Source: a bacterium (GTDB lineage: Bacteria > Planctomycetota > Planctomycetia > Gemmatales > Gemmataceae). Taken from it: a stretch of 64,000 nucleotides of DNA. The notes beneath the pieces are model-generated. The model did not search any database and was not told the origin of the DNA. It saw only the letters and a program-made list of their open reading frames with translations. Shown here piece after piece: positions 39,601-60,137 of the stretch (positions are counted from its first letter, which is position 1; every line of letters begins with the position of its first letter). Position numbers and translations under genes: made by a program. The DNA is taken from positions 23,412 through 87,411 of the forward strand of contig JAFKFQ010000258.1 of assembly GCA_017308215.1 (NCBI GenBank), written 5' to 3'.

Positions 39601-40081
39601 GCCCGGTCTGCCCGACGGCCGAGAGCTCGCCGCCCTGCGGGCCTTTCCGGCGCGTGATGCCGACGTGCATGATCTGCCCCATGATCGACGCGGGCGGCGT
39701 CATCTGGGGGCGGATGCCCGGGGGCATGGTGACGGTCGCCATCCGCTCGGCGACGACCTGCCGCGCGTAGCGCGTCTCGGTCTTCCAGTCGAACTCGACG
39801 TAGATGACGTTCATCCCCTGGCTCGACTGGCTGCGCACGGCTTCCACGCCGGACGCGCCGAGGAGCGCCGTCTCGATCGGCTGGGTGACGAGTGACTCGA
39901 TCTCCTCCGGGGAGAGCCCCGGGCACTCGGTCAGGATGACCACCCGCGGGCGGTCGAGGTCGGGGAACACGTCGATGGGCAGCGTCGTCGAGAGGTACCC
40001 GCCGTAGGCGAGCACGACGAGGCAGCCGGCGAGGACGAGGGTCCGGTGCGTGAGGGCGAGGCGGATGATGGCGTTTAGCAT
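36653..40081 (-). CDS. Heavy-metal RND permease, paralog of 22673..26179
   Basis: IDVFPDLDRP, AVAMGELVDDAIVDVEN, ERLAPVLMTA. Confidence 0.93.
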   Translation of the reverse strand: MLNAIIRLALTHRTLVLAGCLVVLAYGGYLSTTLPIDVFPDLDRPRVVILTECPGLSPEEIESLVTQPIETALLGASGVEAVRSQSSQGMNVIYVEFDWKTETRYARQVVAERMATVTMPPGIRPQMTPPASIMGQIMHVGITRRKGPQGGELSAVGQTGLVAERTGGPANFGLAVWRPRERNRPEAWERVEVLSPTWSAGTPGRSVTFLSGGRSYEARFRTPLEERMDLRTTADWLVRPRLLRLSGIAEVIVLGGDRKQYQVLIDPTKLEEYRVSLNEIEGAIKANNSNASGGFIEEGQSERPVRVIGRLGPLPEKVIDDLKQVAVKPNRDRAVLLGHLADVVEGPAPKRGDASIDGSAGVIMTIVKQPHADTRKLTDDVKAALRETEAALPADVVVQTELFQLKSFIDRGVYYVEEALVIGAVLVVIVLFLFLLNLRTTFITLTAIPLSLVVTTLVFRLAGLVTGQELSINVMTLGGIAVAMGELVDDAIVDVENIYRRLGENAALPSPKPSIVVVYEASREIRSAIVFGTAVVILAFMPLFALSGVEGRLFVPLGVAYIVSILASLVVSLTVTPVLSYYLLGASKEAHAHHDGLLLRVLKWAAGFLIRFSMRRAGLLLLLTWVAVGYCGWKLTTIGADFLPKFDEGSVQVNVALPGGSSLKASNEAAALVDARLKTMQKTPENPNGPILHFARRTGRAELDEHAEPVNVGEYILTMNPESGVRRDDFLRSLLADLRAAVPGVEIETEQPLSHLISHMLSGVRSQIAIVIYGDDLDKLRELAGQIRDVVAQVPGVTPPIIDPQERIDEVHVVLRPDDLAHYKLSRDYVADFVQTALKGEPVSVVLEGQRRFELVVKLKEPFRSDAYRLGELRLELPNDGGQIRLREVADFPKSASGPNLVNRENVRRKQVVRCNVADRDLVSTVEEIERKVRGQVRMPEGYFVEFGGQFESQRSATRLISVLALVSLAGIFLVLMMLYPSVRITLQILNAIPTAFIGGVLALVITNQTLTVASLVGFVSLGGIAVRNGILLVTHYFHLMKEEGQPFSRETVLRGSLERLAPVLMTALTAGIGLIPLVVGGKKPGLEILYPVATVILGGLMTSTFCEFFIHPGLFWKFSGKDAERLVRSEGSDEELLKAAG

Positions 40082-40085
40082 GGCG

Positions 40086-41477
40086 TCACTTCCCCTCGTC
40101 TTCGTTCTTGTGCAGGCTGCCGTCGGCGTGGATGTGGTAGCCCTTCGGCACCGCGCTCGAACCGCCCGCCTTGACCATGCGGTTGAGTTGGGTCGCGCCG
40201 CTCTGAACGACGAACGTGCCGGGCGGGACCGAGCCGTCGTTCGCGAGCACCACCTGGTCCCGGCTCTGAAGAAGAACCCGGACGGGTCGCCGCTCGAAGG
40301 TGTTCACGTTCTGCGAGAAGATAAAGGCGTCTGCGCCCTCCCGGGCGACGGCGTCGGCCGGAAGGACGAAGACGTTGTCGATCCTCTCGACGCGGACGAG
40401 GAGTCGGCACTTCTGTCCCGGCCGGAACCGCCAGAGGGTTTGAGTCCGCCCCTCGTCGTCGATCGCGCGCGACTCGTTCTCAAGCGGCATCAGGAACGCG
40501 AACGTCCGGTTCACCTGGTCGATGGTGTTGGACAGCGTGCGGATGCGGAACGCCTGCTTGACGTCGCCCCACTCGGCCGCGGCGTCTTCCTGGAAATCGA
40601 CATCGACCGGCCAACGCTCCCTGACGCTCTTCTCAAGGAGCGGCGTTTCGTCGCGGAACGCCCGGCCCTCCACGGCGAGCTTCTGGTGGTTGGCGATGAA
40701 GCAGAGGGTCTGTCCCGCCTGGACCTGCTGGCCTGGGTCGACCTTGAGCTCCTGGACTTCAAGGATCCCCTGGAGCGCGGGCGTCCCAGCGGGGCTTGAG
40801 ACGGCGAGTTCTCCAGCGGCGAGCGGGGTGGGGACCGTGATCTCGTTCACGAACGTCCCTTCGGCGACGCCGTCTACGAGTCGCGGGGTGAACCCCCGGT
40901 TGAGGAGTTCCAGGCGGGTCGCCTTGTGCGCGATCTGGAGCCGCGTGATCTGCTGGTCGACCTTGATGATCTCGACGCCAGCGACGGTGTCGGTCAGAGC
41001 CGCGAGGCGGCTCCGTTCGGCCTGCGCGAGCTTGATGTCCTGGGTGGTCTTGAAGAGGTCCGACTGGGTCTGGTGGAGCGTCTCGCTCATGAGCTTCAGG
41101 GTGAAGAGCGGGTCGCCGGACCGCACGCTGTCTCCCGGGAAGTGGTGGACGCGTGAGACCACGCCTGCGGCCGGCGCGACCACGCCGCGGTCGCTCAGCC
41201 CGGGCCGATCGACGACCATCCCCGGCACCTGGATGGTCTTCCAGTAGGTGGTCGCACTGAGCACCTTCGCGGTCAGCCCGAGGTTCAGCTGGGCCTGCTC
41301 GTTGACGATGACCTTCCCGGCCGGGGCGGAGGACTCCTCTCCCGACTCGGCGCTGGGGGGCGACGCGTTCTTCTCCAGCAGCGGCAACCAGTGTGCGCGG
41401 GACGCGTAGGCGCCCGCCCCGATGCCGGCAAAGCCGGCCGAGAGCGCGACGAGTCGGAGCAGACGACGGAGCCACAT
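40086..41477 (-). CDS. RND periplasmic adaptor
   Basis: GAGGAGG RBS, MWLRRLL; PGMVVDRPG; C-terminus GYHIHADGSLH. Confidence 0.9.
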   Translation of the reverse strand: MWLRRLLRLVALSAGFAGIGAGAYASRAHWLPLLEKNASPPSAESGEESSAPAGKVIVNEQAQLNLGLTAKVLSATTYWKTIQVPGMVVDRPGLSDRGVVAPAAGVVSRVHHFPGDSVRSGDPLFTLKLMSETLHQTQSDLFKTTQDIKLAQAERSRLAALTDTVAGVEIIKVDQQITRLQIAHKATRLELLNRGFTPRLVDGVAEGTFVNEITVPTPLAAGELAVSSPAGTPALQGILEVQELKVDPGQQVQAGQTLCFIANHQKLAVEGRAFRDETPLLEKSVRERWPVDVDFQEDAAAEWGDVKQAFRIRTLSNTIDQVNRTFAFLMPLENESRAIDDEGRTQTLWRFRPGQKCRLLVRVERIDNVFVLPADAVAREGADAFIFSQNVNTFERRPVRVLLQSRDQVVLANDGSVPPGTFVVQSGATQLNRMVKAGGSSAVPKGYHIHADGSLHKNEDEGK

Positions 41478-41652
41478 GGACGCCTCCTCTCGGCCGGTGT
41501 GACCGAGGGCGCTGCGCGCGCCTATCGGCACTCACCGGACAACGGTGGTCTGCGTGATCAGACGGAATGGTGACGTTGGCGCGTGCGGACGCGCGAAACG
41601 AGTGGCGTGGGCGCTTGAACGCCCCGGCCGCTACACCACGTGTCGAGAGTGG

Positions 41653-42144
41653 CTAAATGAGGAGTGCGAGATGGCGCACGTAGAGTGGGCAGTGCGCGCG
41701 TTGGGGTGACCGCGTGAGACTACCCGCGGGGGAGTTGGTGCTCTCCCCGAGAGTAAGTAGCAGAGAGCCACCGTCGAGGGAGGAGACCGCGTCTGGTTGC
41801 TCGGCGGACCAATCCGAGTGGCGGTCTACGGGCGGAAGAGTCTCAGCTTTCAGATAGACCGCGTCGCTGTCGTGGCTCGGTGCGGAGCCCGACTCGACAT
41901 TCTCGCTCGGTACTGGCGCGTCATCCACCTCGGCGAGGTGGTGATGGCTGTGCCCGTGCGAGTGCCCGTGATGGCCGTCGTGTTCGTTGTCTTCGATGAC
42001 CCGAACGGGAGGAACGTGCGTGTGGGGACGAAGGTCGTGATCCGCCGGGCTCACACTCCGGTGCGAGTGCGCAAGTGCCAGCGGAGCCATCTGGCTCAGC
42101 AGCACGCACGGCACCAGGAGAAGCGTGACCCCGCGGCGAAGCAT
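41653..42144 (-). CDS. His-rich exported leader-type protein (leader 7)
   Basis: Signal peptide, HDGHHGHSHGHSHHH, HDSDAVY, C-terminus CPLYVRHLALLI*. Confidence 0.8.
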   Translation of the reverse strand: MLRRGVTLLLVPCVLLSQMAPLALAHSHRSVSPADHDLRPHTHVPPVRVIEDNEHDGHHGHSHGHSHHHLAEVDDAPVPSENVESGSAPSHDSDAVYLKAETLPPVDRHSDWSAEQPDAVSSLDGGSLLLTLGESTNSPAGSLTRSPQRAHCPLYVRHLALLI

Positions 42145-42340
42145 CCGTCCCTCTCGGCGAAAACGGCTTTGGAATTGTAACTCACGTGCTCGGGAAAACC
42201 AGGCGGAATTCCGCGCCGCGATAAGTGGAGAGCACCTGCCGCGGGGTTCCCCGGCGGGAGCTTATCGTGTCGCCGGAACGTGTTTTCCCGCGAGCCGGGA
42301 GCGGGGTCGAACACGGAGTCGCACGCACGCTGTAGCTTGG

Positions 42341-47412
<5,072 letters not shown>

Positions 47413-48669
47413 TCAGTGATCGTGGGAGGCAGCGCTCTTCCCGACGTCGGCCTTCACGAGGAAGCTGTTTGTGGTCACGTACTCCTGGCCCGGCTCGATC
47501 CCCGAGAGCACCTCCACCCAGGTCGGGTCTCGCCGTCCGATCTCAAGGGGGCGTATCTCGAATGTGTTCCCGACTCTCAGGAACACGACATCCCAGTCGC
47601 GAAACGTCTGGAGCGCTTCGGCCTTTACTGCGAGCGGCACTGCGTTTTCTTCAATCACGATCGTGCCGGAGACGAAGAGGCCCGGCCGCCAATTGCCGTC
47701 GTCATTCGGGAGGATGGCCCGCGCAGTGGTCATCTGCGTCGCGTTGTCGCCGACGGGCGAGAGGTAGGAGATGCTGCCTACCTCGGAGGACGCGCCGCCG
47801 TCTCGCGAAACGGAAACTGTCTGCCCCGGGCGAACCCGCGCAGCTTCAAGTCCGGGAATCCCGAACTCAACCCAGACCGTGCTCAGGTCGGAGACAAGGT
47901 AAACCGGCTCCTCGTCGACGAACGCGCCGTTGTTCAGGTACTTCTCGATGATCGTGCCCGATATGGGCGACCGTAGCTCGTAGGTCTGAAGGGTTGCGTT
48001 GTTCTCGACGAGCGCGAGCAGGTCTCCGCGTTCGACCCGCTCCCCCCTCTGTTTCCTTGCGTCCCTGAGCAAACCGGGGAAGCGCGGAACGGCTCGCACC
48101 GACTGCTCACTGTTGGCGGTGACGCGGCCGTAGACCGGCAGGAGGTTCTTGATGGTCGCCGGGCCGGCGGATTCGATTCCGAGCTCGGACGCTCGCACCG
48201 CTTCCTCGGAGAATGTTGTCCGCCCCTCGTACGAGTCGTACTTCCAGCGGAACGACTTGCCCTTGTGCTCGGCGAGGACCTCGACGTCAAAAGAGTGCGG
48301 CTCGGTGATCTCTTTGTCGCTTCTCAGAAAGTCTCCGCTCGGTGAGAACTTGATCACATCCGTACGGCCGCCGAGCCGGTACAGTTTCACGGTGAGAGCC
48401 ACCGCCGTCGGCGGGAGTTCTCTCCCGTTCTCGGTAAGGAACACGCGGAATTCTGGTGGCACCCCCCGCTCGAAGATGGTCATCTCGACCGAAAAATTCC
48501 CCTCGGTGAGTAATCGTCCGCCGTGCGATCCCTTTGGGAGTTCGTTGGCGCCTTCGCCGTTCTTCCCTTCGCTCTGTCTGGTCGAGGGCTTAACCCCAAA
48601 GTGGGTCACTGCTACCCCGGCGCCAAGCGTCAGTACGCAGGCAAATGCTAATACTTGTTTCGTGTTCAT
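47413..48669 (-). CDS. czcB: CzcB-like periplasmic adaptor
   Basis: KGSHGGRLL, EPHSFDV, WRPGLFV; ends AASHDH. Confidence 0.92.
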   Translation of the reverse strand: MNTKQVLAFACVLTLGAGVAVTHFGVKPSTRQSEGKNGEGANELPKGSHGGRLLTEGNFSVEMTIFERGVPPEFRVFLTENGRELPPTAVALTVKLYRLGGRTDVIKFSPSGDFLRSDKEITEPHSFDVEVLAEHKGKSFRWKYDSYEGRTTFSEEAVRASELGIESAGPATIKNLLPVYGRVTANSEQSVRAVPRFPGLLRDARKQRGERVERGDLLALVENNATLQTYELRSPISGTIIEKYLNNGAFVDEEPVYLVSDLSTVWVEFGIPGLEAARVRPGQTVSVSRDGGASSEVGSISYLSPVGDNATQMTTARAILPNDDGNWRPGLFVSGTIVIEENAVPLAVKAEALQTFRDWDVVFLRVGNTFEIRPLEIGRRDPTWVEVLSGIEPGQEYVTTNSFLVKADVGKSAASHDH

Positions 48670-48875
48670 TGGGACTCCTGTCGCGATTCGTATCCCCGGC
48701 CGTTCGTGGCGGCTGAATGCTTCGTGGGAATAATTAATCTCTCTTTGAAAGATTGCTTGTGGTGCTAGGAGGCGCTGCGACTGACTGTGCACGCGCCAAA
48801 ATGGAGCGGTGGATCACCAGCAAAACCCTGGATCGAGTCCACGGTTCAGTGTGATGTGTCCGCCGTCGCAGGGGA

Positions 48876-49529: not shown

Positions 49530-50822
49530 CTAGTCCGAGTCGGAAACAGTAGTCCGAGGAGGCAGAACCGGGGTTCGGCCAATCGGTGGCGGGACGTACT
49601 CGGGCTGGTCAGACATAAGCCGCACGAGGCGTTCAAGTCCGTTCGGGTCGGAGACGTTAAAGTAGAGATTGCCGAGGAGCACGGATGGAATCGCCGCCAC
49701 ATCCGCCCTATTGACCACGACGGGGAGGAACTTTCCGTTTCGGAACTCGTCCTGGTAGATCCTGCGTGTGATGATTCCGGTCTCCCACTTGGCGCCTTTC
49801 CCTTTACCGGGATCCTCGTCGCCCTCGCACCGCTTCCGGTACGTCTCTGTGATCACCATCAGGACGTAGTCGGCCTTGCGAATGCTGTTCAACATCCACG
49901 CAGGGAGTCCCTCGGGCGGGTTGAGGGCGTAGAGATCCATAGTGGCCTCGAACCCGTCCCCTCGGAGGTCGTCCACCAACTGTTTCACCCGCTGCTGGTG
50001 GGCATCAGAGTCCCACGAGTAACTCACGAACACCTTTTTCACGACCTTCCCTCCATCCGAGTCTGTGTAGCTTGCACTCCTGCTTAGCCCGCCGACGACA
50101 CCCCCGGCAATGGTTTCGCTCTTCAACACGTCGAAGGCTGCGGCACGGATCACGGCGCGCACGAATCCCAATTCCTCCCCGCTGTCACCGAGGAGCAGCC
50201 GGATAAGTCCCGCTTCGTCGGAGTGGCTGTCCGCAGAATGGGTTGCCGGGAGTACCCCCCGTGCCCGAAGAACTAGCCTGCAATCCGCGACCCTAGGGTC
50301 GGCGGGAAGTTCCGAGGTGCCCTGCAAACGCAGAAGATGTTTCACCGCGCAGACCAGGCATTGCTCCCAGAGGTCTGCGACCGGCTGGCTTGCACGAGCG
50401 GTCAATACCCGAGTCATCCAGCCCGACACCGCCTGCTCCACCTTCGCATCACCGGAGCAACGCGCGCCGCACGCAATCCCCAAGAGAGCCACCGGATCGG
50501 TAACGAACCCGGCAGGCGTGGCAACTATGGTCATGGGCCGCTGGCTGATCCAGCCGAGCGCGTCACAGAGTTCGGCGCGGAAAGAACATGCAGGGCTCAA
50601 CCGTTGTGCGGCGTAGCCGAGCGCGGCGACCTCGCGATAACTCCGGGTGCGCTCGCCGACGAGTGAGTCGAGCTCGCCCGCGTCGTCGAAAGGGAAGTGG
50701 TCCACGCCGAGTAACCAGGCCGCGAACAAGCGGTCCGTGAAGTCGACGGTCGCCATGCCGCGGATCTGCCGCTCCAGGGCAGTACGGCAATCCGACAGCA
50801 GCCGTTCGCGGCCCGTGCTCAC
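49530..50822 (-). CDS. Argonaute-associated effector: helical N-terminal domain plus C-terminal SEFIR/TIR domain
   Basis: GTG start overlaps the Ago stop (GTGA); KVFVSYSWDSDAH...W...ADYVLMVITETY...GKGAKWE...KFLPVV. Confidence 0.85.
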   Translation of the reverse strand: MSTGRERLLSDCRTALERQIRGMATVDFTDRLFAAWLLGVDHFPFDDAGELDSLVGERTRSYREVAALGYAAQRLSPACSFRAELCDALGWISQRPMTIVATPAGFVTDPVALLGIACGARCSGDAKVEQAVSGWMTRVLTARASQPVADLWEQCLVCAVKHLLRLQGTSELPADPRVADCRLVLRARGVLPATHSADSHSDEAGLIRLLLGDSGEELGFVRAVIRAAAFDVLKSETIAGGVVGGLSRSASYTDSDGGKVVKKVFVSYSWDSDAHQQRVKQLVDDLRGDGFEATMDLYALNPPEGLPAWMLNSIRKADYVLMVITETYRKRCEGDEDPGKGKGAKWETGIITRRIYQDEFRNGKFLPVVVNRADVAAIPSVLLGNLYFNVSDPNGLERLVRLMSDQPEYVPPPIGRTPVLPPRTTVSDSD

Positions 50823-53155
50823 AGGAACCACCTCGTCCACCCGATGTTTCCGAGAAGCGCTGAAGAATTCCACTCCGGCAGAGTGGCGAGGTTGCCGAGC
50901 AATCTTGCGATCATCGCGGAATACTCGATCGTAACCGGCATGTCGCACGGGAAGAAGCCCTGCCACGAATGGCCGGCAAAGGCGTACACTTGGCGGGCGA
51001 GGTAGACGGGATCCGTGAAGGTGGAGTCTCGGTGGATCCGGAGCAGAACAGGTCTCGGCACCCCGTCCTCGGGCCGCTTCACCTCCTTGAACCCGGTCAG
51101 CGTGAGTAGCACCTCCCGCTCGGAGAGCAGCATGAAAATGCCGCGGCTCGGCCCGAGAACGCCTTTCGTCGAGCGGGTCTTCTTGTCCGGCTTGCCCTTT
51201 TGTTCGAGGTCGAAAAGCCGGTAGGGGTGATCGTCGACGACGTGAACGAAGGCGAACTCTGCGTTGAACTCGCCGAGGTCTTCCATCACCTGCTTCACGG
51301 CCGTGATCTCAGCATCTCGGAACGGCTTAAACGCGTGGAACACGAGCCGCACGGGACGAGCCCGCTGCCAGCCGGTGTCAGTCCGCACCTGCCGCACGGC
51401 GAGCCGCAAGGTGTCGAGAAGCTCCTCTTGATACGTCTCGAAGGACGCCGCTCGGGACAGGTTCGACAGGCAGTAGTTCCCGTCGCCGGTGAACACGGTC
51501 GTAATGCCCACGACCCGCTGCCCCGACCCGAGTCGAGAGTCGCCGATGCGAGCGCTGCCGAGGCCGACAACCATTTCTTGCAGGAGCGGCTGATCGGATT
51601 TCAGCAGCCACGGCGTCCCGTTCATCTTCGCGTAGCAGGCAAGCGAGAGGTTGTTCAGCGCGAACTGAATCGAATAGGGCGAGAGCTCCATCGTCTCGGC
51701 GGTGAATGCCTGGACCGGCGTCTGATGCGTGAGTAGCTCGGACTTGCAAATCAGGTACGGATTCTCGGTGTTGGGGAGATCCTTGAACCGCTCCTCGGTT
51801 TGGACGAAGCAGATGTCCCACTTCGGCCCGCCAGGCCCGACGCTCGCGATCGCGCTCCGGGCTGCCTTGCGGTAAGCCGCAGCCGAATTGTTCTCCGTGA
51901 CGAAGAACTCGAAGTCGATCCCGCCCAAGTGGTACTTGTCGAGGAAGCCCTGCTCGAAGGGCTGGATGCCGTCTCCTCCGGCCACCACACCTTCCTTGAA
52001 CTTCACGAGGAACTGTTCGACCTGACCCTTCTTTCCCTTCTGACAGAGGACACACACCCTCGGGCGATTGGGTGTGAATCCACGGCTGGAGTAGGGGCCG
52101 TGCCGCGTGATGCCCGCATCCACGGGCCACTCGCACGCTTTGCTCGGGGTCGCCGAGTCGAAGAGGTACACCGGACTCCTCGCGCGGTGGACCTTCGGGA
52201 ACGGGTGCGGATCGTCCTTGGCGGCGGTTGCCAGAAAGTAGCCCAGGGTGCAGGTAACGTCCTGGGGGAGCGGAAGCGTCTGCTTCCTGATGTGCTCGCG
52301 GACCGCGCTCAGCCGTTCGAGCAGTTGGCCCCCTTGCCGGAAGTTGGCCCGCGCCTGCTCGATGCTCGCGAGCATCGTGGTCGCGTGCCGCGGGAACAGA
52401 GTCCTGACGCAGCGGTCGAAAAACTCGCCACGTGCCTGCGGGAAGGCTTCGTCAGCCAGGATGGTCGGCGTGTCCTCCCGGTGATCCAAAAGCGAAAGCC
52501 TGTCGCCGTCGACCGCACCGACCTGTCCAACAGTCTCAAGTTTCGGGGCCAGCCGCTGATCGTTCGTCTCGGCGATCCGCTTCACGTACACGCCGCGGAC
52601 ATCCACGCCGTTCCGAATCAGCTCCGCGCAACTCGCGAGAATGCGCCGCGAGACGAACCCGTCGAAGATGATCGCGACGTAAGCGGGCTGGTCCTCCGGG
52701 GAGATGACCCGGACATCGAGCTCGAAGACGGGGCTAACCCGAAGTTGCCCCGGATTGTTCATCCCGTCGGGGAGGGCCGCGGCGAAGTAGTCGTCGTTGT
52801 CACCGCTCGCCAGGAACGTGATTGGCCGGAGGTGCAGGACGGTGCGCTTGATGCTGTTCAGGTATGCGAAGAGGCCGTTCCGCACGAGGCTCGCGGCGAG
52901 GTAGAGGTCTTCCCTCAAGTCGATGATTTCGGTCGCCCCGCCGAGTGAAGGGGCTTCCTGCTTCAGCGGAACGCAGACGACGGTGTCGGTCTCGACATCC
53001 CTCCGCACCACGTGCGAATCGCGCGTTTGACCCCGAAGATCTCGGAGCCAGTCCGCATCGACGTAGCGCAGCCGCTCCGCCTGGACCGGGCCACCGGCCA
53101 GTTCTAGCGGGGCTACGTTGAGCACGTGACCCGTTCGGAAAGAAACGTTCCCCAT
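50819..53155 (-). CDS. ago: Long-B prokaryotic Argonaute (RsAgo-like, inactive PIWI*)
   Basis: 778 aa; MID PYLICK...PVQ...YAKMNG; PIWI VGITTVFTGDG, PVTIEYS, C-terminal RWFL; catalytic Asp positions replaced (VVGLG, FHAF). Confidence 0.93.
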   Translation of the reverse strand: MGNVSFRTGHVLNVAPLELAGGPVQAERLRYVDADWLRDLRGQTRDSHVVRRDVETDTVVCVPLKQEAPSLGGATEIIDLREDLYLAASLVRNGLFAYLNSIKRTVLHLRPITFLASGDNDDYFAAALPDGMNNPGQLRVSPVFELDVRVISPEDQPAYVAIIFDGFVSRRILASCAELIRNGVDVRGVYVKRIAETNDQRLAPKLETVGQVGAVDGDRLSLLDHREDTPTILADEAFPQARGEFFDRCVRTLFPRHATTMLASIEQARANFRQGGQLLERLSAVREHIRKQTLPLPQDVTCTLGYFLATAAKDDPHPFPKVHRARSPVYLFDSATPSKACEWPVDAGITRHGPYSSRGFTPNRPRVCVLCQKGKKGQVEQFLVKFKEGVVAGGDGIQPFEQGFLDKYHLGGIDFEFFVTENNSAAAYRKAARSAIASVGPGGPKWDICFVQTEERFKDLPNTENPYLICKSELLTHQTPVQAFTAETMELSPYSIQFALNNLSLACYAKMNGTPWLLKSDQPLLQEMVVGLGSARIGDSRLGSGQRVVGITTVFTGDGNYCLSNLSRAASFETYQEELLDTLRLAVRQVRTDTGWQRARPVRLVFHAFKPFRDAEITAVKQVMEDLGEFNAEFAFVHVVDDHPYRLFDLEQKGKPDKKTRSTKGVLGPSRGIFMLLSEREVLLTLTGFKEVKRPEDGVPRPVLLRIHRDSTFTDPVYLARQVYAFAGHSWQGFFPCDMPVTIEYSAMIARLLGNLATLPEWNSSALLGNIGWTRWFL

Positions 53156-53346: not shown

Positions 53347-54339
53347 TCAGATAAGAATGCGTTCGATTTCGTCGAGGGTGATCTCGTCGCCGGTTCGGTC
53401 GTAGAGCTTCGTCGTCCGCGGGGATTCGTGCGCAGCGATCGCCTGAGCGTTTTCGATCGTGCCACCGTTGTCCAGGTAGGCAGTGATTCCTGTCGCGCGG
53501 AACGTGTGATTGCAGGTGCTCTCCGGGATCCCCGCCGCCTTCGCCCTTCGCTTTACCATCCGGAACGCGTCGTTCCGGGTCATCTGGTTCCCGGTTACCA
53601 CGCCCTTGCGGCTGATGGACTGGAACAGCGGCAGCTTCTTGTCGTCGCCGATCCGGGCGGCCAGGAGGTAGGCGTCGAGGTAGGCCTCCGCCGAGTGGTG
53701 CGCAGGAACTTGGTGGAGCTTCCCGCCCTTTTCGCGGAAGCGAAACCACCAGCGCTTGCCATCCTGGTAGTAGTCTTCGACGCGGAGCGAGACGGCGGCA
53801 GTGACGCGGGCAAAACTGAAGACCATGACCGCGATGAGCGCCCGGTCGCGCAAGCCGGAGAGCTTGGCCGTGTCGATGGAGTCGAGGAGCTGTCGGGCTT
53901 GTTCCTTGTCGAGCACCGGAGTTTTCCCGCGCTTCACCACGTGCTTCGGCCCACGGACGGAGCTCGCCGGGTTCATCGCGAGCACCTGGCCGATCACCAG
54001 CCAGTCGAACAGCACCCGGATGGCCGCGAGGTGCTGCTTCACGGTCGGCGGAGCGCCGGGATGCTGCTCGATGTAGGCCGCGACATGGATGGGCTCGATG
54101 TCGACGAGCTCCAAATCGTGCTCCTGGCACCAGCCGAAGAACTGCCCGACAGCGCGGGCGTAAGCGAGTCGCGTGTTCTCGTTCCTGATGGTGGCTGTAA
54201 AGAATTCGAGGAAGCGCTTCCGGGCGGCCCGGCCGGCGTGGGCGATAACGGCAGGAACCTTCCCGGCCGGGTACCAGTCCGCGACCTCCGTCCGAGGTGC
54301 CTGAATTGACACGCTTTTTCTGCTCACCCGCTGCACCAT
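53347..54339 (-). CDS. Tyrosine recombinase/integrase (XerC/D-like, plasmid/transposon resolvase type)
   Basis: R (FARV), HTFR, H (AAHES), Y (TKLYDR); start uncertain (54339 or 54327). Confidence 0.92.
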   Translation of the reverse strand: MVQRVSRKSVSIQAPRTEVADWYPAGKVPAVIAHAGRAARKRFLEFFTATIRNENTRLAYARAVGQFFGWCQEHDLELVDIEPIHVAAYIEQHPGAPPTVKQHLAAIRVLFDWLVIGQVLAMNPASSVRGPKHVVKRGKTPVLDKEQARQLLDSIDTAKLSGLRDRALIAVMVFSFARVTAAVSLRVEDYYQDGKRWWFRFREKGGKLHQVPAHHSAEAYLDAYLLAARIGDDKKLPLFQSISRKGVVTGNQMTRNDAFRMVKRRAKAAGIPESTCNHTFRATGITAYLDNGGTIENAQAIAAHESPRTTKLYDRTGDEITLDEIERILI

Positions 54340-54360
54340 AAAGGACGTTATGGTGCAGCG
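54329..54360. other. dif-like tyrosine-recombinase crossover site (13-6-13)
   Basis: CGCTGCACCATAA-aggacg-TTATGGTGCAGCG, perfect inverted repeat at the recombinase 5' end. Confidence 0.75.
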
Positions 54361-54417
54361 TGGGGGATCACGCAAGCCGCCGAATTAGGCGGAAAGCCGG
54401 AGCCGGACAACGAGTCG

Positions 54418-54780
54418 TCAGTCTTTCGTGAGTCCCATCACCTTGAGAACAACTTCTCGCCAATTAGGATCGTTCGGATCATGCGAAAGCACACACAGCG
54501 GCATCCCGAGCTGGCCGTCTGCCGCCCCTGACCATTCGATGTCCGTTCCTAGTGAGGCCAGGTGGTGCCAGAGGGCGAAGTAGCAGAGGTAAATGGCCTG
54601 GAATGGGTTTTCGCCAGTGGAACCTTGGGACTTGGTCCGAGGCAGTCCCCTCACACGATACGTGCATAGATAATGTCGTGACTGCTTTGTGGGTGATAGA
54701 ATATCAACCTTTGCGGGCTTACCGCGATACATGAAAGTCCGGGATGCAATCACCACTGCTTTCGACAAATCTGGCTTCAT
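54418..54780 (-). CDS. Putative Rhs immunity protein 2 (DUF6968-like)
   Basis: IASR...ILSP...YLC...GENPFQAI; paralog of the adjacent gene; lower GC. Confidence 0.7.
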   Translation of the reverse strand: MKPDLSKAVVIASRTFMYRGKPAKVDILSPTKQSRHYLCTYRVRGLPRTKSQGSTGENPFQAIYLCYFALWHHLASLGTDIEWSGAADGQLGMPLCVLSHDPNDPNWREVVLKVMGLTKD

Positions 54781-54808
54781 ATACGTCCTAATCGAGGCTT
54801 ATTCTGGA

Positions 54809-55213
54809 CTATTTTCCCTTCGATGTCTCAGCATGCTTCGCCGTTACCTTGGCAGAGTGTCTAGCTCGGAGAGCATCACGCAGTTTCAAATTGTCCATAC
54901 TGCTCAAGAACTCTGTTTCAGCAAGTATGATGGGAAAAGAAGGACTAAGCTGCTTCCCCGCCTCATCCGTAGGGTACACTCCAAGTTCGGCAAGGTGACA
55001 TACAATCTCGGCGAGTGCCCGAAGCAGCGCTTGCATCGAGTCCACACCCGCACTGATCCTGCGTCGAGGCGGAGGCATTGAGGTCGTGTCGAAACTACAG
55101 GCATACCCTCCGTTGGGCACACGAACTGGCGAATAGAGCCGTATTGTAGCCCACTGTCCATTATAGCGAATCTTATGCGTCGCTATTACCTGCTGCATCC
55201 GAACTCGTTTCAT
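54809..55213 (-). CDS. Putative Rhs immunity protein 1 (DUF6968-like)
   Basis: Starts 3 nt after the Rhs stop; IATH...LYSP...YAC...GVDSMQAL. Confidence 0.75.
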   Translation of the reverse strand: MKRVRMQQVIATHKIRYNGQWATIRLYSPVRVPNGGYACSFDTTSMPPPRRRISAGVDSMQALLRALAEIVCHLAELGVYPTDEAGKQLSPSFPIILAETEFLSSMDNLKLRDALRARHSAKVTAKHAETSKGK

Positions 55214-55216
55214 AGG

Positions 55217-58200
55217 TTAGTGTATATACCTCCGTTTCTTCGGGGGAAATGAGCCATCGCAGTAGCCATAACACGTCTGGCGGTCTTCGGGACCACCTAT
55301 CGCGTCGGCCATCCGCGCCCGGCAAACTTCACGCTCTTCTGAGGTTTTGAGCGTGTCGCAGAAGACCCTTTGTGCTTCAACGAAGTACCCCGAGTTGGCT
55401 AGGTCGCAAGCGTCCCTGCACCGGCTATTCCGGGTTCGGCGTGGGCCCATTTCAAGCTGCGGGTCGAACGAGCATTGAGCTGGCTCCTCGGGTCCGAATA
55501 ACGCCTCTTGAATCTCGTCGTGGAAAAGCTCCTCTATGACACTGCCGATCGAGTATCCAGCCGCAGCCGCACCAATCACGCCGGCGTCTGGAGGAAACGG
55601 AATTAAATCCGAAACACTTACAGACGGCGACGAGGTTCCGGAAGCACCGTAGCCACCACCTTCAACTTGTTGGACCTCTAAACCGTCAGGATCAACATGA
55701 CTGATCGGATTTGCGATCGCGTAAGCGTGCATGTTGTCGCCACCAGCGTATCCGATCGGATCGGCAGAGATCCAGCGAGACAGGTTGGGGGAGTACCATC
55801 GGTGGGTGGCAAGTACCAGCTTTGAGTCGCCGTCACGGTAATAGCCGTCACGGCCACCGTACTTAAACGGGTTCGGCGTCACTCCCGACGAATACAGTTC
55901 CCAGCCGTATCCGTCGTACCTGTACCCATCGATTACGGCACCTGTCGCATCCGTTAAGAATCTCGTCTCGGCTTGCGGGCCGAAGTGATACCACCGAGAG
56001 TCTCCTATCCCGAAGAGTCGTTGTGAAACGATTCCATACGCTCCCCAAGTAGTCGCAGCACTTGGAGCTCCCGTATCGACTTCGCCAAGCAGGACACGTC
56101 CTGAAAAGACAAAGAATCGCTTCAAGGAGCCGCTTCCAGTGGGATGCCGCAGCACGCGCTTCCCGCTTGCATCGTAGCCGTAGGTCAGGTCGTCAGTAGA
56201 TGTCTGCTGCCGCTTTAGACGATTTCTCACGTCCCAGGTCAGTGTGGTGTTCGGTATCCCCGCTCCGCTCACCGCGATCATGTTCGCGTCGGCGTCGTAA
56301 CTCGCGCTCCCGCCGCTCAGCGAGCTGATCTTGTTGGCGTCGTCGTAGCTCGCGAACGTCGAGCCGCCGTACGTCGTCATGTTCCCGGCGAGGTCGTAGC
56401 CGTAGCTCCGCGTGTAGGCTCCTGTTCCCGTTCGGTCCTCCGCCGTCAGCCGGTAGAGCGCGTCGTAGGTGTACTCGACTTCGGACGAGTCGAGTTCCGT
56501 CACCTTCGTGACGTTCCCGACGGTGTTGTTCCCTCCGTCGTACTCCAGGTCGTAACTCGCAAACGGCGTGGTTCCGAGCTTGTGGAGAATCTGCGTCGGC
56601 CAGCCGCGGTTCTGGTTGTAGGTGTAGGTCGTCGATGTCCCGTTCTCGTTGGCTTGAGTCTTCAGCTTCCCCACCCCGTCGTAGGTGAACGTCGTCGTCT
56701 CACCGAAGCTGTTCACGACCTCGGTGAGGCGGCCGGCCCCGTCGTAGTCGTATTCCCAGTCCGCGACACTCGACGTTCCATTCTTCCATTCGAGTGCGTG
56801 GAGCGTGCCGTCCGGGTTGTAGTCGTACTCCAGTGTCTGGGCGTTCGTCAGCCCCGAGACGCTCCAGTCGTATTCGACCGCCGACACCCTCCGGCCTGAA
56901 GTGTAGGAGTAGGTCGTCGTTCCCACTTCGTCCGTCACCGCCGATACCCGCCCATCGGTCCGAAACGTGTAGCTGATCGAGGTCGGCGTTCCGCTCGCCG
57001 GGACGAGGTCAATCTCCTCCACCCGTCCCGAGCCGTCGTAGGTGTACTGCTTCTTGTGTCCTCGGGTGTCCTCGGTCTCGGCGAGTCGCCCGTAGTCGTC
57101 GTAGCGGTAGAGGAGGTACGAACCATCCGGGTAGAGCGTCTTCTTCAACTCTCCGGCGAGCCCGTACTCGTACTCGGTCTCCTTGCTCCGGGCGTCGATG
57201 AACGCAGTTGTCCTGTGGTCCGCGTCCTGGTCCCAGGCGAGGCTCTTCGAGAGCGGCATGTCCACTCCGGTGAGTTTCCCGCACACCGCGCAGAAATCGA
57301 ACGAGGTCACCGCACCTGCCTCGTCGGTGATGAAAGCCAACTTCCGGTAGCTGTAGGCGTAGTCCCGGTATTTGCCGTCCGGAAGGGTCTCTCGCGTCGT
57401 TCGCCCTCCTCCGTCGTAGGCGAACTGAAACGCGATGTCCGTCCCGCTCTCCGGAGTCTGTTCGATTTCCGTCACCTGGCCCGCGCCGTTGTAGCTCGTG
57501 AACCGGGTCTCGTTCCCCGCTCCGTTCGTGATTTTCTTCAGGAAGCCGAAGTTCGGAGAAGAACTTGTCTCCTCGTATTCGTAGGTCGTCGTTCCTGTTG
57601 GCGATCCACTCGGAGGGGCCACCGTGAGCAGTTGGCCATAAGCGTTGTACGTCTTGGTCCAGGTGTTCCCGTCCCCGTCCGTGACGCTCGTTCGAAGGTG
57701 CGGCTGCGCCACGTCGCCGTAGACGAGTTGGACCAAGCTTCCAATGCTGTCCTCGACTTCCGTCAGGTCCACGCCGTTTCCTGCGTAAGTGAACGTCCAG
57801 ACCCCGCCATTGTTGTCGTCGATCTCGGTCACCTTCCCCTTCGAGTTGTAGGTGAAGTCGGTGGTCGTCGCTCCATCCGAGATCTGCGTGATGTTGTGAT
57901 TCGAGTCGTACTGGAACGTGTAGCTCACACCTGCCGAAGCCCCACTCATCACCGGGAGAATCGTCCGGACAAGCCGTCCCGAAGAGTCGTAGTCGTGCTT
58001 CGTCACCCCTCCAAGCGAGTTCGTCACCTGCGTGCGGTAGGAGGCACCGGAACCCGGCGAGGCGAAGTAGTTCACGTTCGCGTTCCCGCCCGGCCAGGTC
58101 ATGTTCGCGAGGTACGTCGTCTGGCCGCTGACCGCACCTTGCGGGAGGTACGTGAAGGACAGTTTCGACGTCGTGTCGCCGTCCTTCTCGACGTCCTTCA

Positions 58201-60010
58201 AGAGGTGCTGCTGGCCGCTCGCGGTGAAGTAGGTGACGTCCACCTTCTCGATCACCGTTCCGGAGTTGTTCTTCCTCTGGATGGAAGAGATCTTCGCGTT
58301 ACCGTTGTAGGAGATTGTCGTGTAGTTCCCCGACGAGTCCTCGGTGATCTGGATGATCCGCGGATAAGTGTCATAGGTGAGCGTGACGGTCCTTCCCGTG
58401 CTCACCTCTTCGATCTCGACTGGGTGGTTCTGCCCACTCTTCAGCGCCCAGGTGATCTGCCGGATGTTTCCCACCGGGTCAGTGATCTTCGTGAGCCCGC
58501 TTCCGGGGCCGTTGAACTCGTAGGTCCAACTTCCGGCCTGCCAAATCTCTCCCGGAGCGCCGGCGTTCTGAAGCTTGTATCCCCCGGTGATGCTCGTGAA
58601 CGTCCCGTAGAACCCGGCCGGCGGTGTCGGCGAGCCGCTGGTCGTTCCGACGTAGAACTCGCTGCCGTCCGCATCGACGAAGTATCGGGAGCTGCCCGAG
58701 GTCATGAAACCGATGGAGTACGTGAAGTTGCCGTTCATCATACTCGTGAAGTACGCGCCACCCACGATCCGGTGGCTGTGAAGCTGGATTTCAAGCGGGA
58801 TGCCCGACCCTCGACCCGCTTGGCTCGACACACTCACGCTCACTGTCGCGTTCCCCGTCGCCGGGGTGACCGAGCCGGTGGCGCTCATCGAGCCGCGCTG
58901 CGCCGGTTCGGCAGAAGCCATACTCATGAAGGAAGCACCGCCTGCTCCGCCATCTCCCCCGTTCCCCGCTCCGCCGCACTGGTGCGAGATGGAGCCGCTG
59001 TCCGTCGCATCCGTCCCCGCTCTTGAAGGAGTTTTCGGGCGGCAGAACATGTCGGCCGAGGTGTTACTCGTCGAGCCCTCGTCGTCGGTGACAGTCAAAC
59101 TTGCCGTGTAGGTGCCGGCGTGGGGTGGGTTGAACGAGACGGAGGCGTTGCTCGACGAAGAGAAGCCGTAGCTGCTCGGCCCTGACACGCTCCATGCGGC
59201 CGAGCAGGTGTTCCGCGAGTTCGGAGGAGGTGATGTCGGGTTGTCCGGGTCGTAGGAGAAATTGGCGAAGGACGTGTCGAGGCCCTGAGAGCAGTTCTGC
59301 TGCACGTCGAGGACTACGACCGGGCTGTTCGCGCCGAATGCTGCGGTGATCGTCTGGTTCCCGGTGATGGTCGTCGTTCCGACTCCTGACCCGTCGGTCC
59401 GGGCGTATGACGTGACGGTGTACGTGCTGGAAGGTGCAACCTTGTAGTAGGTGACCCCGCCAAAGCTCTTCGTGTTTCCCGGCGAGCAGCCGAGATGCAC
59501 GGAACTGTTCCCGCTTCTGCTCGTCGAGCCGTTTTCGCTGATTCCGGTGCTCAGTTTCGTTGCCGAGAATGTTCCGGCGTTGTACATGTATCCGCCGTAG
59601 CTCACGGAGCTTGAGACCGGCGCGCTGATGTTGTAACTCGCGGTGCCCGAGCCCGAGAGGTAGACGTCTCCGCCGTGCTTCGCCCACAGGCTGAACCGGT
59701 ACCCTCCGCTGTACTCGCAGACCCCACTTCCGCTCGTTCTCTCTGCTGTCACAGAGCTGCTCAACGTCAGCGTCCCACCTGATGCGCCCGCACTGCTCGA
59801 CTCGTTGAACGAACAGACTCCGGAGGTCCAAGAGCCGGAGTCGCTCAGCGATGTGATCTGTGCCGCGCTCGACGAGTTGCTGCCGTTTGCGACGTGGTTT
59901 CCTTCGTAGATGAAGTCGGGAGGTGTTTGGGCGACTGCGCTTCCGAGAAAAATCAGCCAAGCGGAAGAAAATGCGAGTTTCAAGCTGTGCCGGTGGCTCG
60001 TGCCAATCAT
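55217..60010 (-). CDS. RHS/YD-repeat protein with signal peptide, PKD domain and Cys-rich C-terminal tip
   Basis: GTYTASLTVTDDEG (PKD), many YD repeats, core RWYSPNLSRWISADPIG...NPISHVDPDG. Confidence 0.93.
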   Translation of the reverse strand: MIGTSHRHSLKLAFSSAWLIFLGSAVAQTPPDFIYEGNHVANGSNSSSAAQITSLSDSGSWTSGVCSFNESSSAGASGGTLTLSSSVTAERTSGSGVCEYSGGYRFSLWAKHGGDVYLSGSGTASYNISAPVSSSVSYGGYMYNAGTFSATKLSTGISENGSTSRSGNSSVHLGCSPGNTKSFGGVTYYKVAPSSTYTVTSYARTDGSGVGTTTITGNQTITAAFGANSPVVVLDVQQNCSQGLDTSFANFSYDPDNPTSPPPNSRNTCSAAWSVSGPSSYGFSSSSNASVSFNPPHAGTYTASLTVTDDEGSTSNTSADMFCRPKTPSRAGTDATDSGSISHQCGGAGNGGDGGAGGASFMSMASAEPAQRGSMSATGSVTPATGNATVSVSVSSQAGRGSGIPLEIQLHSHRIVGGAYFTSMMNGNFTYSIGFMTSGSSRYFVDADGSEFYVGTTSGSPTPPAGFYGTFTSITGGYKLQNAGAPGEIWQAGSWTYEFNGPGSGLTKITDPVGNIRQITWALKSGQNHPVEIEEVSTGRTVTLTYDTYPRIIQITEDSSGNYTTISYNGNAKISSIQRKNNSGTVIEKVDVTYFTASGQQHLLKDVEKDGDTTSKLSFTYLPQGAVSGQTTYLANMTWPGGNANVNYFASPGSGASYRTQVTNSLGGVTKHDYDSSGRLVRTILPVMSGASAGVSYTFQYDSNHNITQISDGATTTDFTYNSKGKVTEIDDNNGGVWTFTYAGNGVDLTEVEDSIGSLVQLVYGDVAQPHLRTSVTDGDGNTWTKTYNAYGQLLTVAPPSGSPTGTTTYEYEETSSSPNFGFLKKITNGAGNETRFTSYNGAGQVTEIEQTPESGTDIAFQFAYDGGGRTTRETLPDGKYRDYAYSYRKLAFITDEAGAVTSFDFCAVCGKLTGVDMPLSKSLAWDQDADHRTTAFIDARSKETEYEYGLAGELKKTLYPDGSYLLYRYDDYGRLAETEDTRGHKKQYTYDGSGRVEEIDLVPASGTPTSISYTFRTDGRVSAVTDEVGTTTYSYTSGRRVSAVEYDWSVSGLTNAQTLEYDYNPDGTLHALEWKNGTSSVADWEYDYDGAGRLTEVVNSFGETTTFTYDGVGKLKTQANENGTSTTYTYNQNRGWPTQILHKLGTTPFASYDLEYDGGNNTVGNVTKVTELDSSEVEYTYDALYRLTAEDRTGTGAYTRSYGYDLAGNMTTYGGSTFASYDDANKISSLSGGSASYDADANMIAVSGAGIPNTTLTWDVRNRLKRQQTSTDDLTYGYDASGKRVLRHPTGSGSLKRFFVFSGRVLLGEVDTGAPSAATTWGAYGIVSQRLFGIGDSRWYHFGPQAETRFLTDATGAVIDGYRYDGYGWELYSSGVTPNPFKYGGRDGYYRDGDSKLVLATHRWYSPNLSRWISADPIGYAGGDNMHAYAIANPISHVDPDGLEVQQVEGGGYGASGTSSPSVSVSDLIPFPPDAGVIGAAAAGYSIGSVIEELFHDEIQEALFGPEEPAQCSFDPQLEMGPRRTRNSRCRDACDLANSGYFVEAQRVFCDTLKTSEEREVCRARMADAIGGPEDRQTCYGYCDGSFPPKKRRYIH

Positions 60011-60137
60011 AGGCCCTCCGTGGATAAGTCCCGCCGACGCTAGCACGGTCCGCGTGGCGAAAATACCCCCACTTCCCCCTGATGAAACCGCTGATTGAAG
60101 GAGGCCCGGTGGTGCGCGGGCCTGAACTGCGAACCTG

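Follow-up and report, generated by a model that had tools for sequence, protein, structure and literature searches.

Within a 64,000-nucleotide stretch of a Gemmataceae contig (JAFKFQ010000258.1, assembly GCA_017308215.1, positions 23,412 to 87,411; the whole stretch is called the window here), a two-gene operon pairs a long-B prokaryotic Argonaute (pAgo) with a partner protein made of an N-terminal helical adaptor, a linker and a C-terminal SEFIR domain. The operon is a real, intact variant of BPAN, the system in which a long-B pAgo is followed by the nuclease bAgaN, and it had been noted in silico before. We consider it probable that the module is a BPAN-like abortive infection system, which would act by NAD+ depletion.

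A long-B Argonaute operon with an adaptor-SEFIR partner

The 778-residue open reading frame (ORF) contains a Piwi domain (Pfam, E = 5.5e-9) and is covered from residue 11 to 778 by the PADLOC model pAgo_II (PDLC02379, 5e-244); against the NCBIfam RsAgo-type equivalog NF052569 it scores 410 bits, under the model's cut-off of 700. The closest solved structures, by phmmer against the PDB, are EcAgo (23wq, 2.9e-120) and RsAgo (1e-101), and the protein aligns end to end (11-778) with both, N-terminal half included. The tetrad, mapped by alignment on EcAgo G492/E532/Q568/D700 with the residue roles given in Liu 2026 (PMC13535254), reads G533, E573, H607/A608 (a one-residue gap) and A747, and the catalytic aspartates are absent. 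The 5'-phosphate pocket of the MID domain is intact (N465, Y467, K471, Q482, N501, K510), and Y467, K471, Q482 and K510, which make it a YK-type pocket, are invariant in 24 of 24 pAgos. The GPYxxRxF motif, a partner contact in EcBPAN (PMC13535254), is present as Y355, R358 and F360. An orthologue from Zavarzinella, 87% identical to the window pAgo, is listed as long-B with a small PAZ, a YK pocket and no tetrad (Ryazansky 2018, supplement file 7). By these comparisons the window protein is a full-length long-B pAgo of the RsAgo/EcAgo clade, predicted not to cut, in agreement with the initial annotation, which had described a catalytically dead, RsAgo-like pAgo.

The gene pair of that annotation (a 778-residue pAgo and a 430-residue partner with a GTGA overlap) was confirmed in coordinates and lengths, and the overlap would couple the translation of the two genes. 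An in-frame partner start at -4 occurs in 77 of 85 loci, mostly with nuclease partners, in a survey whose start choice favoured the candidate nearest -4; the overlap is the norm of the family.

The C-terminal region of the partner was assigned by Pfam to SEFIR (residues 262-382, 3.5e-13, 50.5 bits) and to TIR_2 (6.5e-12, 46.5 bits), with no DpnII-MboI nuclease (Pfam) and no SIR2 (Pfam, PADLOC) at E ≤ 1. The PADLOC model closest to the domain is bSEFIR (5e-50), the best Foldseek matches of the AlphaFold2 (AF2) model are the bacterial SEFIR structures 5y8e/5y8f, and a trace NCBIfam match points to ThcB4 of Thoeris type III (E = 0.049); the SEFIR fold originally proposed for this region thus stands. 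A stand-alone bacterial SEFIR protein has been reported to deplete NAD+ (Millman 2022 preprint). Eight residues (S267, Y268, D296, W309, G343, K345, W346 and E347) do not vary among the 19 adaptor-SEFIR proteins compared, and D296 and E347 align with the Asp and Glu of the B. cereus SEFIR (5y8e), while human Act1 SEFIR has no Glu at the aligned position. The 'WE glutamate' of the initial annotation therefore holds for its glutamate and not for its tryptophan: TIR domains have a WxxxE motif, but B. cereus SEFIR has T-E where the partner has W346-E347, and W346 is thus not the Trp of that motif.

Residues 1-240 of the partner match the PADLOC Aga_Helical-REase models PDLC02411 (2e-50) and PDLC02404 (2e-21), and not the TIR-PNTD models. 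The same two models also match a near twin of EcbAgaN (phmmer 1.7e-195), encoded on a Shewanella plasmid, in its residues 1-225 (9e-40 and 5e-47). A single-sequence word search with the adaptor gave 20 matches, all of the SEFIR type; nuclease-type relatives emerged with profiles. A profile built from SEFIR-type N-domains alone took three rounds to recruit 82 of 84 partner N-domains, and no reversed decoy scored above 9.9 bits; the two missed were those of L022 and of the EcbAgaN twin. EcbAgaN R77-D95 pairs gaplessly with W91-D109 of the window protein, and the docking loop Q81-R90 thereby falls on R95-A104. Membership of the adaptor in the bAgaN N-domain family is well supported by these profiles, its direct similarity to the solved EcbAgaN weakly so. 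The region LGWISQRP...FVTDP, initially proposed to be the Ago-docking adaptor, is borne out as such by the loop alignment and by the PADLOC models that it has in common with the EcbAgaN homologue.

The AF2 model of the adaptor (pLDDT 93) has a hairpin at residues 98-103 and is otherwise helical. Foldseek returned no match for it at E ≤ 0.001, and 23wq was not among the Foldseek or VIA results (structure library to April 2026). In VIA its best scores were with glycosidases and cyclases of the alpha/alpha-toroid type, the highest at Z 12.9 (227 residues aligned, rmsd 4.2). The model (50109-50822) resembles a reduced alpha/alpha toroid as in GH105/GH88 and squalene-hopene cyclase, at a level borderline for helical bundles, and a likeness of this degree could reflect no more than a widespread arrangement of helices. 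For the EcbAgaN N-domain, the EcBPAN paper (PMC13535254) reports no structural homologues.

A complex of the pAgo MID-PIWI region with the adaptor was predicted with a score of 0.54 against 0.00 for the best control (runs 0.54, 0.58 and 0.00); contacts agreed to at least 48% and partner pLDDT was at least 79. In calibration, 116 of 157 solved pairs attained the mark used for this score, as did 2 of 215 mismatched pairs; the passes at or below 0.60 comprised just 18 of the 157 solved pairs and both mismatches. The prediction lends the complex weak support, and as a like complex, 23wq, is already solved, the pass may reflect likeness only.

Table 1. Features of the operon and its immediate upstream neighbour (window coordinates).
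Feature	Position	Strand	Basis and remarks
Long-B pAgo, 778 residues, intact	50819..53155	minus	ATG at 53155, TGA at 50819; Pfam, PADLOC, alignment to EcAgo
Partner, 430 residues: bAgaN-type helical adaptor, linker, SEFIR	49530..50822	minus	GTG start at 50822, stop at 49530; Pfam, PADLOC
GTGA stop/start overlap of pAgo and partner	50819..50822	minus	ORF coordinates
N-terminal helical adaptor, residues 1-238, bAgaN N-domain homologue; predicted alpha/alpha-toroid-like bundle	50109..50822	minus	Profiles, AF2
Predicted Ago-docking loop, R95-A104	50511..50540	minus	Gapless alignment to EcbAgaN Q81-R90; beta-hairpin in model
SEFIR domain, residues about 261-422	49557..50042	minus	Invariant S267/Y268, D296, W309, G343-K345-W346-E347
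E347 codon, putative catalytic glutamate (inferred role)	49782..49784	minus	Alignment, conservation
Tyrosine recombinase, 192 bp upstream of pAgo	53347..54375	minus	Pfam; mobile-element neighbour, not conserved with the module

Distribution of the SEFIR variant and of the adaptor

By word search, 18 other near-full-length adaptor-SEFIR proteins were found, 52-91% identical to that of the window, and for 9 of the 18 the longest contig has the same length as that of a pAgo match, an indirect sign of pairing. Where the DNA was seen, a pAgo precedes the adaptor-SEFIR gene at -4 in nine of ten distinct genes, window included; upstream DNA is missing for the tenth (L002). The gene-neighbourhood survey called for by the initial annotation thus found the pairing conserved in other genomes (a pAgo precedes each of the nine genes for which upstream DNA was available). 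Downstream of 85 non-redundant pAgos, counted after 11 loci (L028 among them) had been dropped as repeats of counted DNA or of the window itself, the partners were 72 DpnII-MboI nucleases, 8 SEFIR proteins, 1 PNP, and 1 weak nuclease plus PNP; 3 were unassigned. Within the window's family, 5 of 252 genomes have the SEFIR type and 2 more the nuclease type.

Quick IQ-TREE phylogenies of the MID-PIWI region (84 and 38 rows, midpoint root; two short pAgo fragments were excluded from the 84-row tree) place the window pAgo and 8 SEFIR-partnered pAgos in one clade inside the nuclease-partnered pAgos, with SH-aLRT support of 99 and 100. In a FastTree of the adaptor alone (85 rows, SEFIR columns excluded), a single clade with a support of 98 takes in all 14 SEFIR fusions. 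Because the SEFIR-partnered pAgos are a single clade nested among nuclease-partnered ones, a single swap from nuclease to SEFIR is likely, as the parsimonious reading of midpoint-rooted quick trees rather than as proof; the initial suggestion that an effector here takes the place of a nuclease is backed by both trees. Those members of the clade with a taxon label belong to Planctomycetota (Gemmataceae, Isosphaeraceae and one contig of a Kuenenia metagenome-assembled genome with plasmid genes) or to the window's family. The closest non-pAgo SEFIR seen is in a stand-alone SEFIR-subtilase fusion (L004:5971-8289, plus strand; PADLOC subtilase/IetS), 41-43% identical to the window SEFIR, and gives a hint of the type of donor.

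Ratios of nonsynonymous to synonymous substitution (dN/dS) against the window were 0.03-0.35 for SEFIR (computable in 7 of 8), 0.12-0.33 for the adaptor (6 of 8) and 0.36-1.6 for the linker, by the Nei-Gojobori method with dS near saturation in distant pairs. Judged by these ratios, SEFIR and adaptor are under purifying selection.

The same adaptor was found with other effectors. At L110:988-2235 (minus strand, genome G721), a 416-residue protein joins it to a Cap12/Pycsar TIR domain (PF10137, 2.9e-35) behind a long-B pAgo at -4, with a GajA-like gene following; this is a second, independent swap to the TIR superfamily. A 543-residue adaptor-PNP_UDP_1 fusion (a Cap17-like nucleosidase) stands behind a long-B pAgo at L021/L114 (G491; L114:7651-9282, plus strand), and an adaptor with a degenerate nuclease and a PNP does so at L091:7205-9205 (plus strand); a passage of Rousset 2023 places PNP effectors with short pAgos only. 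In two Microcoleus loci (L058:7283-9253 and L066:7286-9256), 657-residue partners combine the adaptor, a weakened nuclease match and about 250 residues with no confident Pfam family.

A profile search of 1.84 billion representatives gave 635 adaptor proteins at E ≤ 0.001. Among the best 150 of the 635 were 80 nuclease and 5 SEFIR proteins, 37 short proteins with no recognised C-domain and 28 others, the last including Cap12-TIR, two CHAT, two PNP, patatin and DUF2272 fusions (Pfam) and three hydrophobic, membrane-like tails (by eye). Nuclease adaptors with EAD1-trypsin or EAD7 extensions were also found as proteins whose gene context was not seen. The Cap12-TIR, CHAT, PNP, patatin, DUF2272, membrane-like and EAD1-trypsin/EAD7 fusions are P0058, P0067, P0140, P0127, P0133, P0154, P0128, P0180, P0189, P0083 and P0197. 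The 28 others were seen as proteins outside their gene context, except P0105, which is the L021 protein, and CHAT, patatin and membrane-type fusions were not retrieved from the genome samples of 401, 301 and 252 or from the viral scan. On the adaptor tree the non-SEFIR fusions are scattered, and its starred branches require the Cap12-TIR type to have arisen at least twice and the membrane type likewise. A general effector socket of long-B pAgos is suggested, since the same adaptor carries a Cap12/Pycsar TIR or a PNP behind pAgos, as well as CHAT, patatin and membrane-type tails. We lean slightly towards the view that the bAgaN N-domain plays for long-B pAgos the part that APAZ plays elsewhere, as a portable switch under Argonaute control that would have been fitted repeatedly with different killing domains.

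Many copies of the SEFIR module lie in mobile DNA. A tyrosine recombinase or integrase is found near 7 of 9 loci, and toxin-antitoxin (TA) modules, a relaxase and RepA/ParA genes occur around copies; plasmid RepA/ParA are found at L026, and L027 is on a plasmid. At L015 (G009) a 1.06-kb insertion sequence (IS; DDE transposase, inverted repeats; L015:5261-6352) splits the pAgo and leaves the SEFIR partner intact. The Tundrisphaera plasmid pTA3_3 (52.4 kb) holds two copies, L027 and L028, 26.2 kb apart and 99.8% identical over 12.3 kb, which probably reflects dimerisation of the plasmid or else a duplication made in assembly; the operon on pTA3_3 has a G+C content at third codon positions of 0.45-0.50, against 0.81 for the adjacent integrase. 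No repeats marking element ends were found around the window operon, and a promoter and terminator scan of it gave nothing above chance. One RNA run yielded two short, strandless contigs inside the operon (49761-50050 and 51350-51599); the run was picked by means of this stretch and DNA carry-over is possible, so these contigs are evidence neither for nor against expression.

On the minus strand of the window, positions 54418-60046 hold the gene of an RHS-repeat protein (1609 aa) and, after it, two DUF6968 genes; next come the integrase and the pAgo operon. The two DUF6968 genes are a possible immunity pair, and since a contig of run X7 links 54361 to 60098 via 1221 different letters, this RHS cassette is variable cargo. 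Directly downstream of the operon (36653-48792, minus strand) is a heavy-metal efflux cluster with two RND/CusA-type pumps, membrane-fusion proteins and a P-type ATPase, named from their translations; RND genes occur in 14% of long-B operons (Ryazansky 2018).

Proposed mechanism and alternatives

Every step beyond gene structure and homology is our inference, and the events proposed are as follows. By analogy with EcBPAN (Song 2023, Liu 2026), the pAgo would load 5'-phosphorylated small RNA guides and bind complementary plasmid or phage DNA. Target-bound pAgo would then capture the loop R95-A104 between MID and PIWI, as in EcBPAN, and lift the autoinhibition of a partner dimer. Several partners would be brought together in this way, their clustering would switch on SEFIR, and SEFIR would destroy NAD+ and kill the invaded cell. 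The variant itself may have originated in a lineage of Planctomycetota by a single replacement of a PD-(D/E)XK nuclease with a defence-type SEFIR, and then have spread on mobile DNA.

Several observations weigh against this proposal. Of the seven EcAgo docking residues three are kept (Y318, R321 and F323, as Y355, R358 and F360) and four are changed (S524>N565, R552>D593, N554>G595, D559>R600); on the partner side R77, A82 and D86 of EcbAgaN are not kept, and the Ago-Ago contacts D400 and H726 are P441 and W773. Because docking and Ago-Ago contacts differ, the 8:8 assembly of EcBPAN need not carry over. The direct sequence link to EcbAgaN is weak, and the assignment depends on PADLOC models that match both proteins and could have been seeded with both kinds: EcbAgaN is the top match of a 57-row adaptor profile among 177,635 PDB sequences, yet at E = 0.09, and the N-domain of the EcbAgaN-like L103 never passed 1e-5 in profile iteration (best 0.007). 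The putative catalytic role of E347 follows TIR chemistry, in which we take this to be the catalytic position, by alignment and not by superposition. Human SEFIRs are scaffolds, and no further defence gene adjoins the window operon among the ORFs scanned. At three loci the pAgo is followed by an adaptor with a small tail and no evident enzyme: a short basic tail beside primase-like genes in two viral contigs (L115:6292-7290, L119:6310-7332; no Pfam match for either) and a cyanobacterial helical tail at L126:1465-2952. These are possibly regulatory, decoy or effector-less forms.

Three other explanations were considered. With the same sensing and docking, SEFIR could make a signal (cyclic ADP-ribose-like, as with Thoeris ThsB TIRs) or scaffold a separate effector. 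Animal SEFIRs are interaction domains, the residue mutated in the bacterial SEFIR that was tested (D40A) was picked for its place in a SEFIR-SEFIR interface, and both the trace ThcB4 match and the pAgo-adjacent adaptors with non-enzymatic tails fit such a role. Among 67 neighbouring ORFs scanned at 9 loci no third gene is conserved, and genome G000 has a single copy of each module part. The closest model, bSEFIR, is moreover that of a reported NAD+ depleter, and SEFIR occupies the exact place of the killing nuclease in relatives, so we regard a signalling or scaffolding role as unlikely. A still smaller chance is given to a partner that is an NADase triggered without Argonaute, for instance by a phage protein, beside a pAgo that silences or dislodges plasmids on its own like RsAgo, the operon being co-inherited cargo. 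The partial conservation of docking residues, the weak complex prediction with one of three runs at 0 and the IS-split pAgo beside an intact partner at L015 would suit that account. It sits poorly with the presence of the adaptor behind a pAgo at every locus with upstream DNA, with the purifying selection on the adaptor, with the SEFIR clade in both pAgo and adaptor trees, and with Ago docking as the known job of this domain in EcBPAN (PMC13535254).

Equally doubtful in our estimate is a module that serves chiefly as an addiction or competition device of the mobile element carrying it, which it would help to shut out rival plasmids or to persist, while contributing little against phages. Most copies are surrounded by integrases, TA modules, a relaxase or plasmid replication genes, the distribution is patchy (as the family count above shows), and EcBPAN and GbBPAS are both reported to be triggered by a plasmid origin, that of CloDF13. 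EcBPAN also blocks a phage, however, and the biochemistry in this account would be identical to, and compatible with, that of Argonaute-gated NAD+ depletion, which remains the reading we prefer.

If the adaptor-SEFIR protein works in that way, one switch would be shown to drive an unrelated enzyme, and the activation of SEFIR could be studied with a trigger that is both defined and programmable, namely a guide together with target DNA. Argonaute-TIR immunity would reach beyond short pAgos; no long-B Argonaute system before that of the window operon would have been shown to use an NADase of the TIR superfamily, and its adaptor would be a socket into which target-triggered enzymes can be programmed. 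The significance is moderate: effector swapping is familiar in defence, the pairing was already published in 2009, and the variant is rare.

Relation to known systems

The initial annotation had presented the pairing as a candidate new system, a claim that is ruled out by GobsU_24486 of Gemmata obscuriglobus, in which a SEFIR was described as replacing the nuclease of this family (Makarova 2009, PMC2743648). That protein is listed with 439 residues, pfam08357, in the table row 'new_RecB2' (supplement file 1 of the same paper). As compared by description, it resembles the 430-residue window partner in joining a helical N-domain of the PTH_0722 family to a SEFIR, not a PD-(D/E)XK domain, beside a full-size pAgo. 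The account, two sentences and a table row, predates SEFIR as an NADase and gives no mechanism, distribution or test. The G. obscuriglobus pAgo is listed as truncated (518 residues; Ryazansky 2018 supplement), unlike the intact pAgo of the window.

Whether the system was already modelled in PADLOC or DefenseFinder had also been raised, and it is so in part: residues 7-419 of the partner are covered by PADLOC Aga_Helical-REase PDLC02411, although this model carries a nuclease label. The window SEFIR alone is matched by the C-terminal half of the model (2e-15), which suggests that the seed of PDLC02411 includes a SEFIR-type protein. Since the model name says nuclease, defence inventories probably misassign the effector. 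Burroughs/Aravind PIWI classifications reportedly lie behind the PADLOC class names. A search of the literature on long-B pAgo, SEFIR and bAgaN, with most subscription papers outside its coverage so that absence is not shown, found no experimental test of, or name for, the SEFIR variant; with the same coverage, no survey of the adaptor's other fusions was found. The text and six text supplements of Song 2023 (PMC10620215) do not mention SEFIR.

The effectors known from long-B Argonaute systems are nucleases, Sir2 proteins and membrane proteins, and in the 2026 EcBPAN paper (PMC13535254) the docking domain is treated as a feature of the nuclease branch. According to that paper (Liu 2026), long-B effectors of the NADase and membrane kinds lack the bAgaN N-domain, a statement to which the window partner and L110 are apparent counter-examples. 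What is added here is an intact copy, the SEFIR clade, and the same adaptor with a Cap12/Pycsar TIR or a PNP directly behind pAgos.

With BPAN itself (EcBPAN, PDB 23wq; bAgaN is og_15/RecB2) the window operon has in common the pAgo clade, the two-gene order from pAgo to partner, the -4 overlap, the helical adaptor and a docking loop in register. The two differ at the C-terminus, a PD-(D/E)XK DNase in bAgaN and SEFIR in the window partner, and in Ago-Ago and some Ago-partner contacts. BPAS (Song 2023) likewise pairs a catalytically dead long-B pAgo with a probable NADase encoded downstream, and the predicted outcome, NAD+ depletion, is the same; its effector has a Sir2 fold, its pAgo belongs to a separate subclade, and a bAgaN-type adaptor is absent according to Liu 2026. 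Stand-alone bacterial SEFIR proteins share the SEFIR domain and the aligned Asp296 and Glu347. They are single genes with an N-terminal SEFIR (Millman 2022 preprint), whereas the window SEFIR is C-terminal, fused to the adaptor and encoded in a pAgo operon.

SPARTA, a short pAgo with TIR-APAZ, is an Argonaute-gated TIR NADase activated by oligomerisation. The window module is predicted from sequence to resemble it as an Argonaute-gated NADase of the TIR superfamily, but its pAgo is long with N and PAZ regions of its own, APAZ is absent, and the effector is C-terminal, encoded downstream and a SEFIR rather than a TIR domain.

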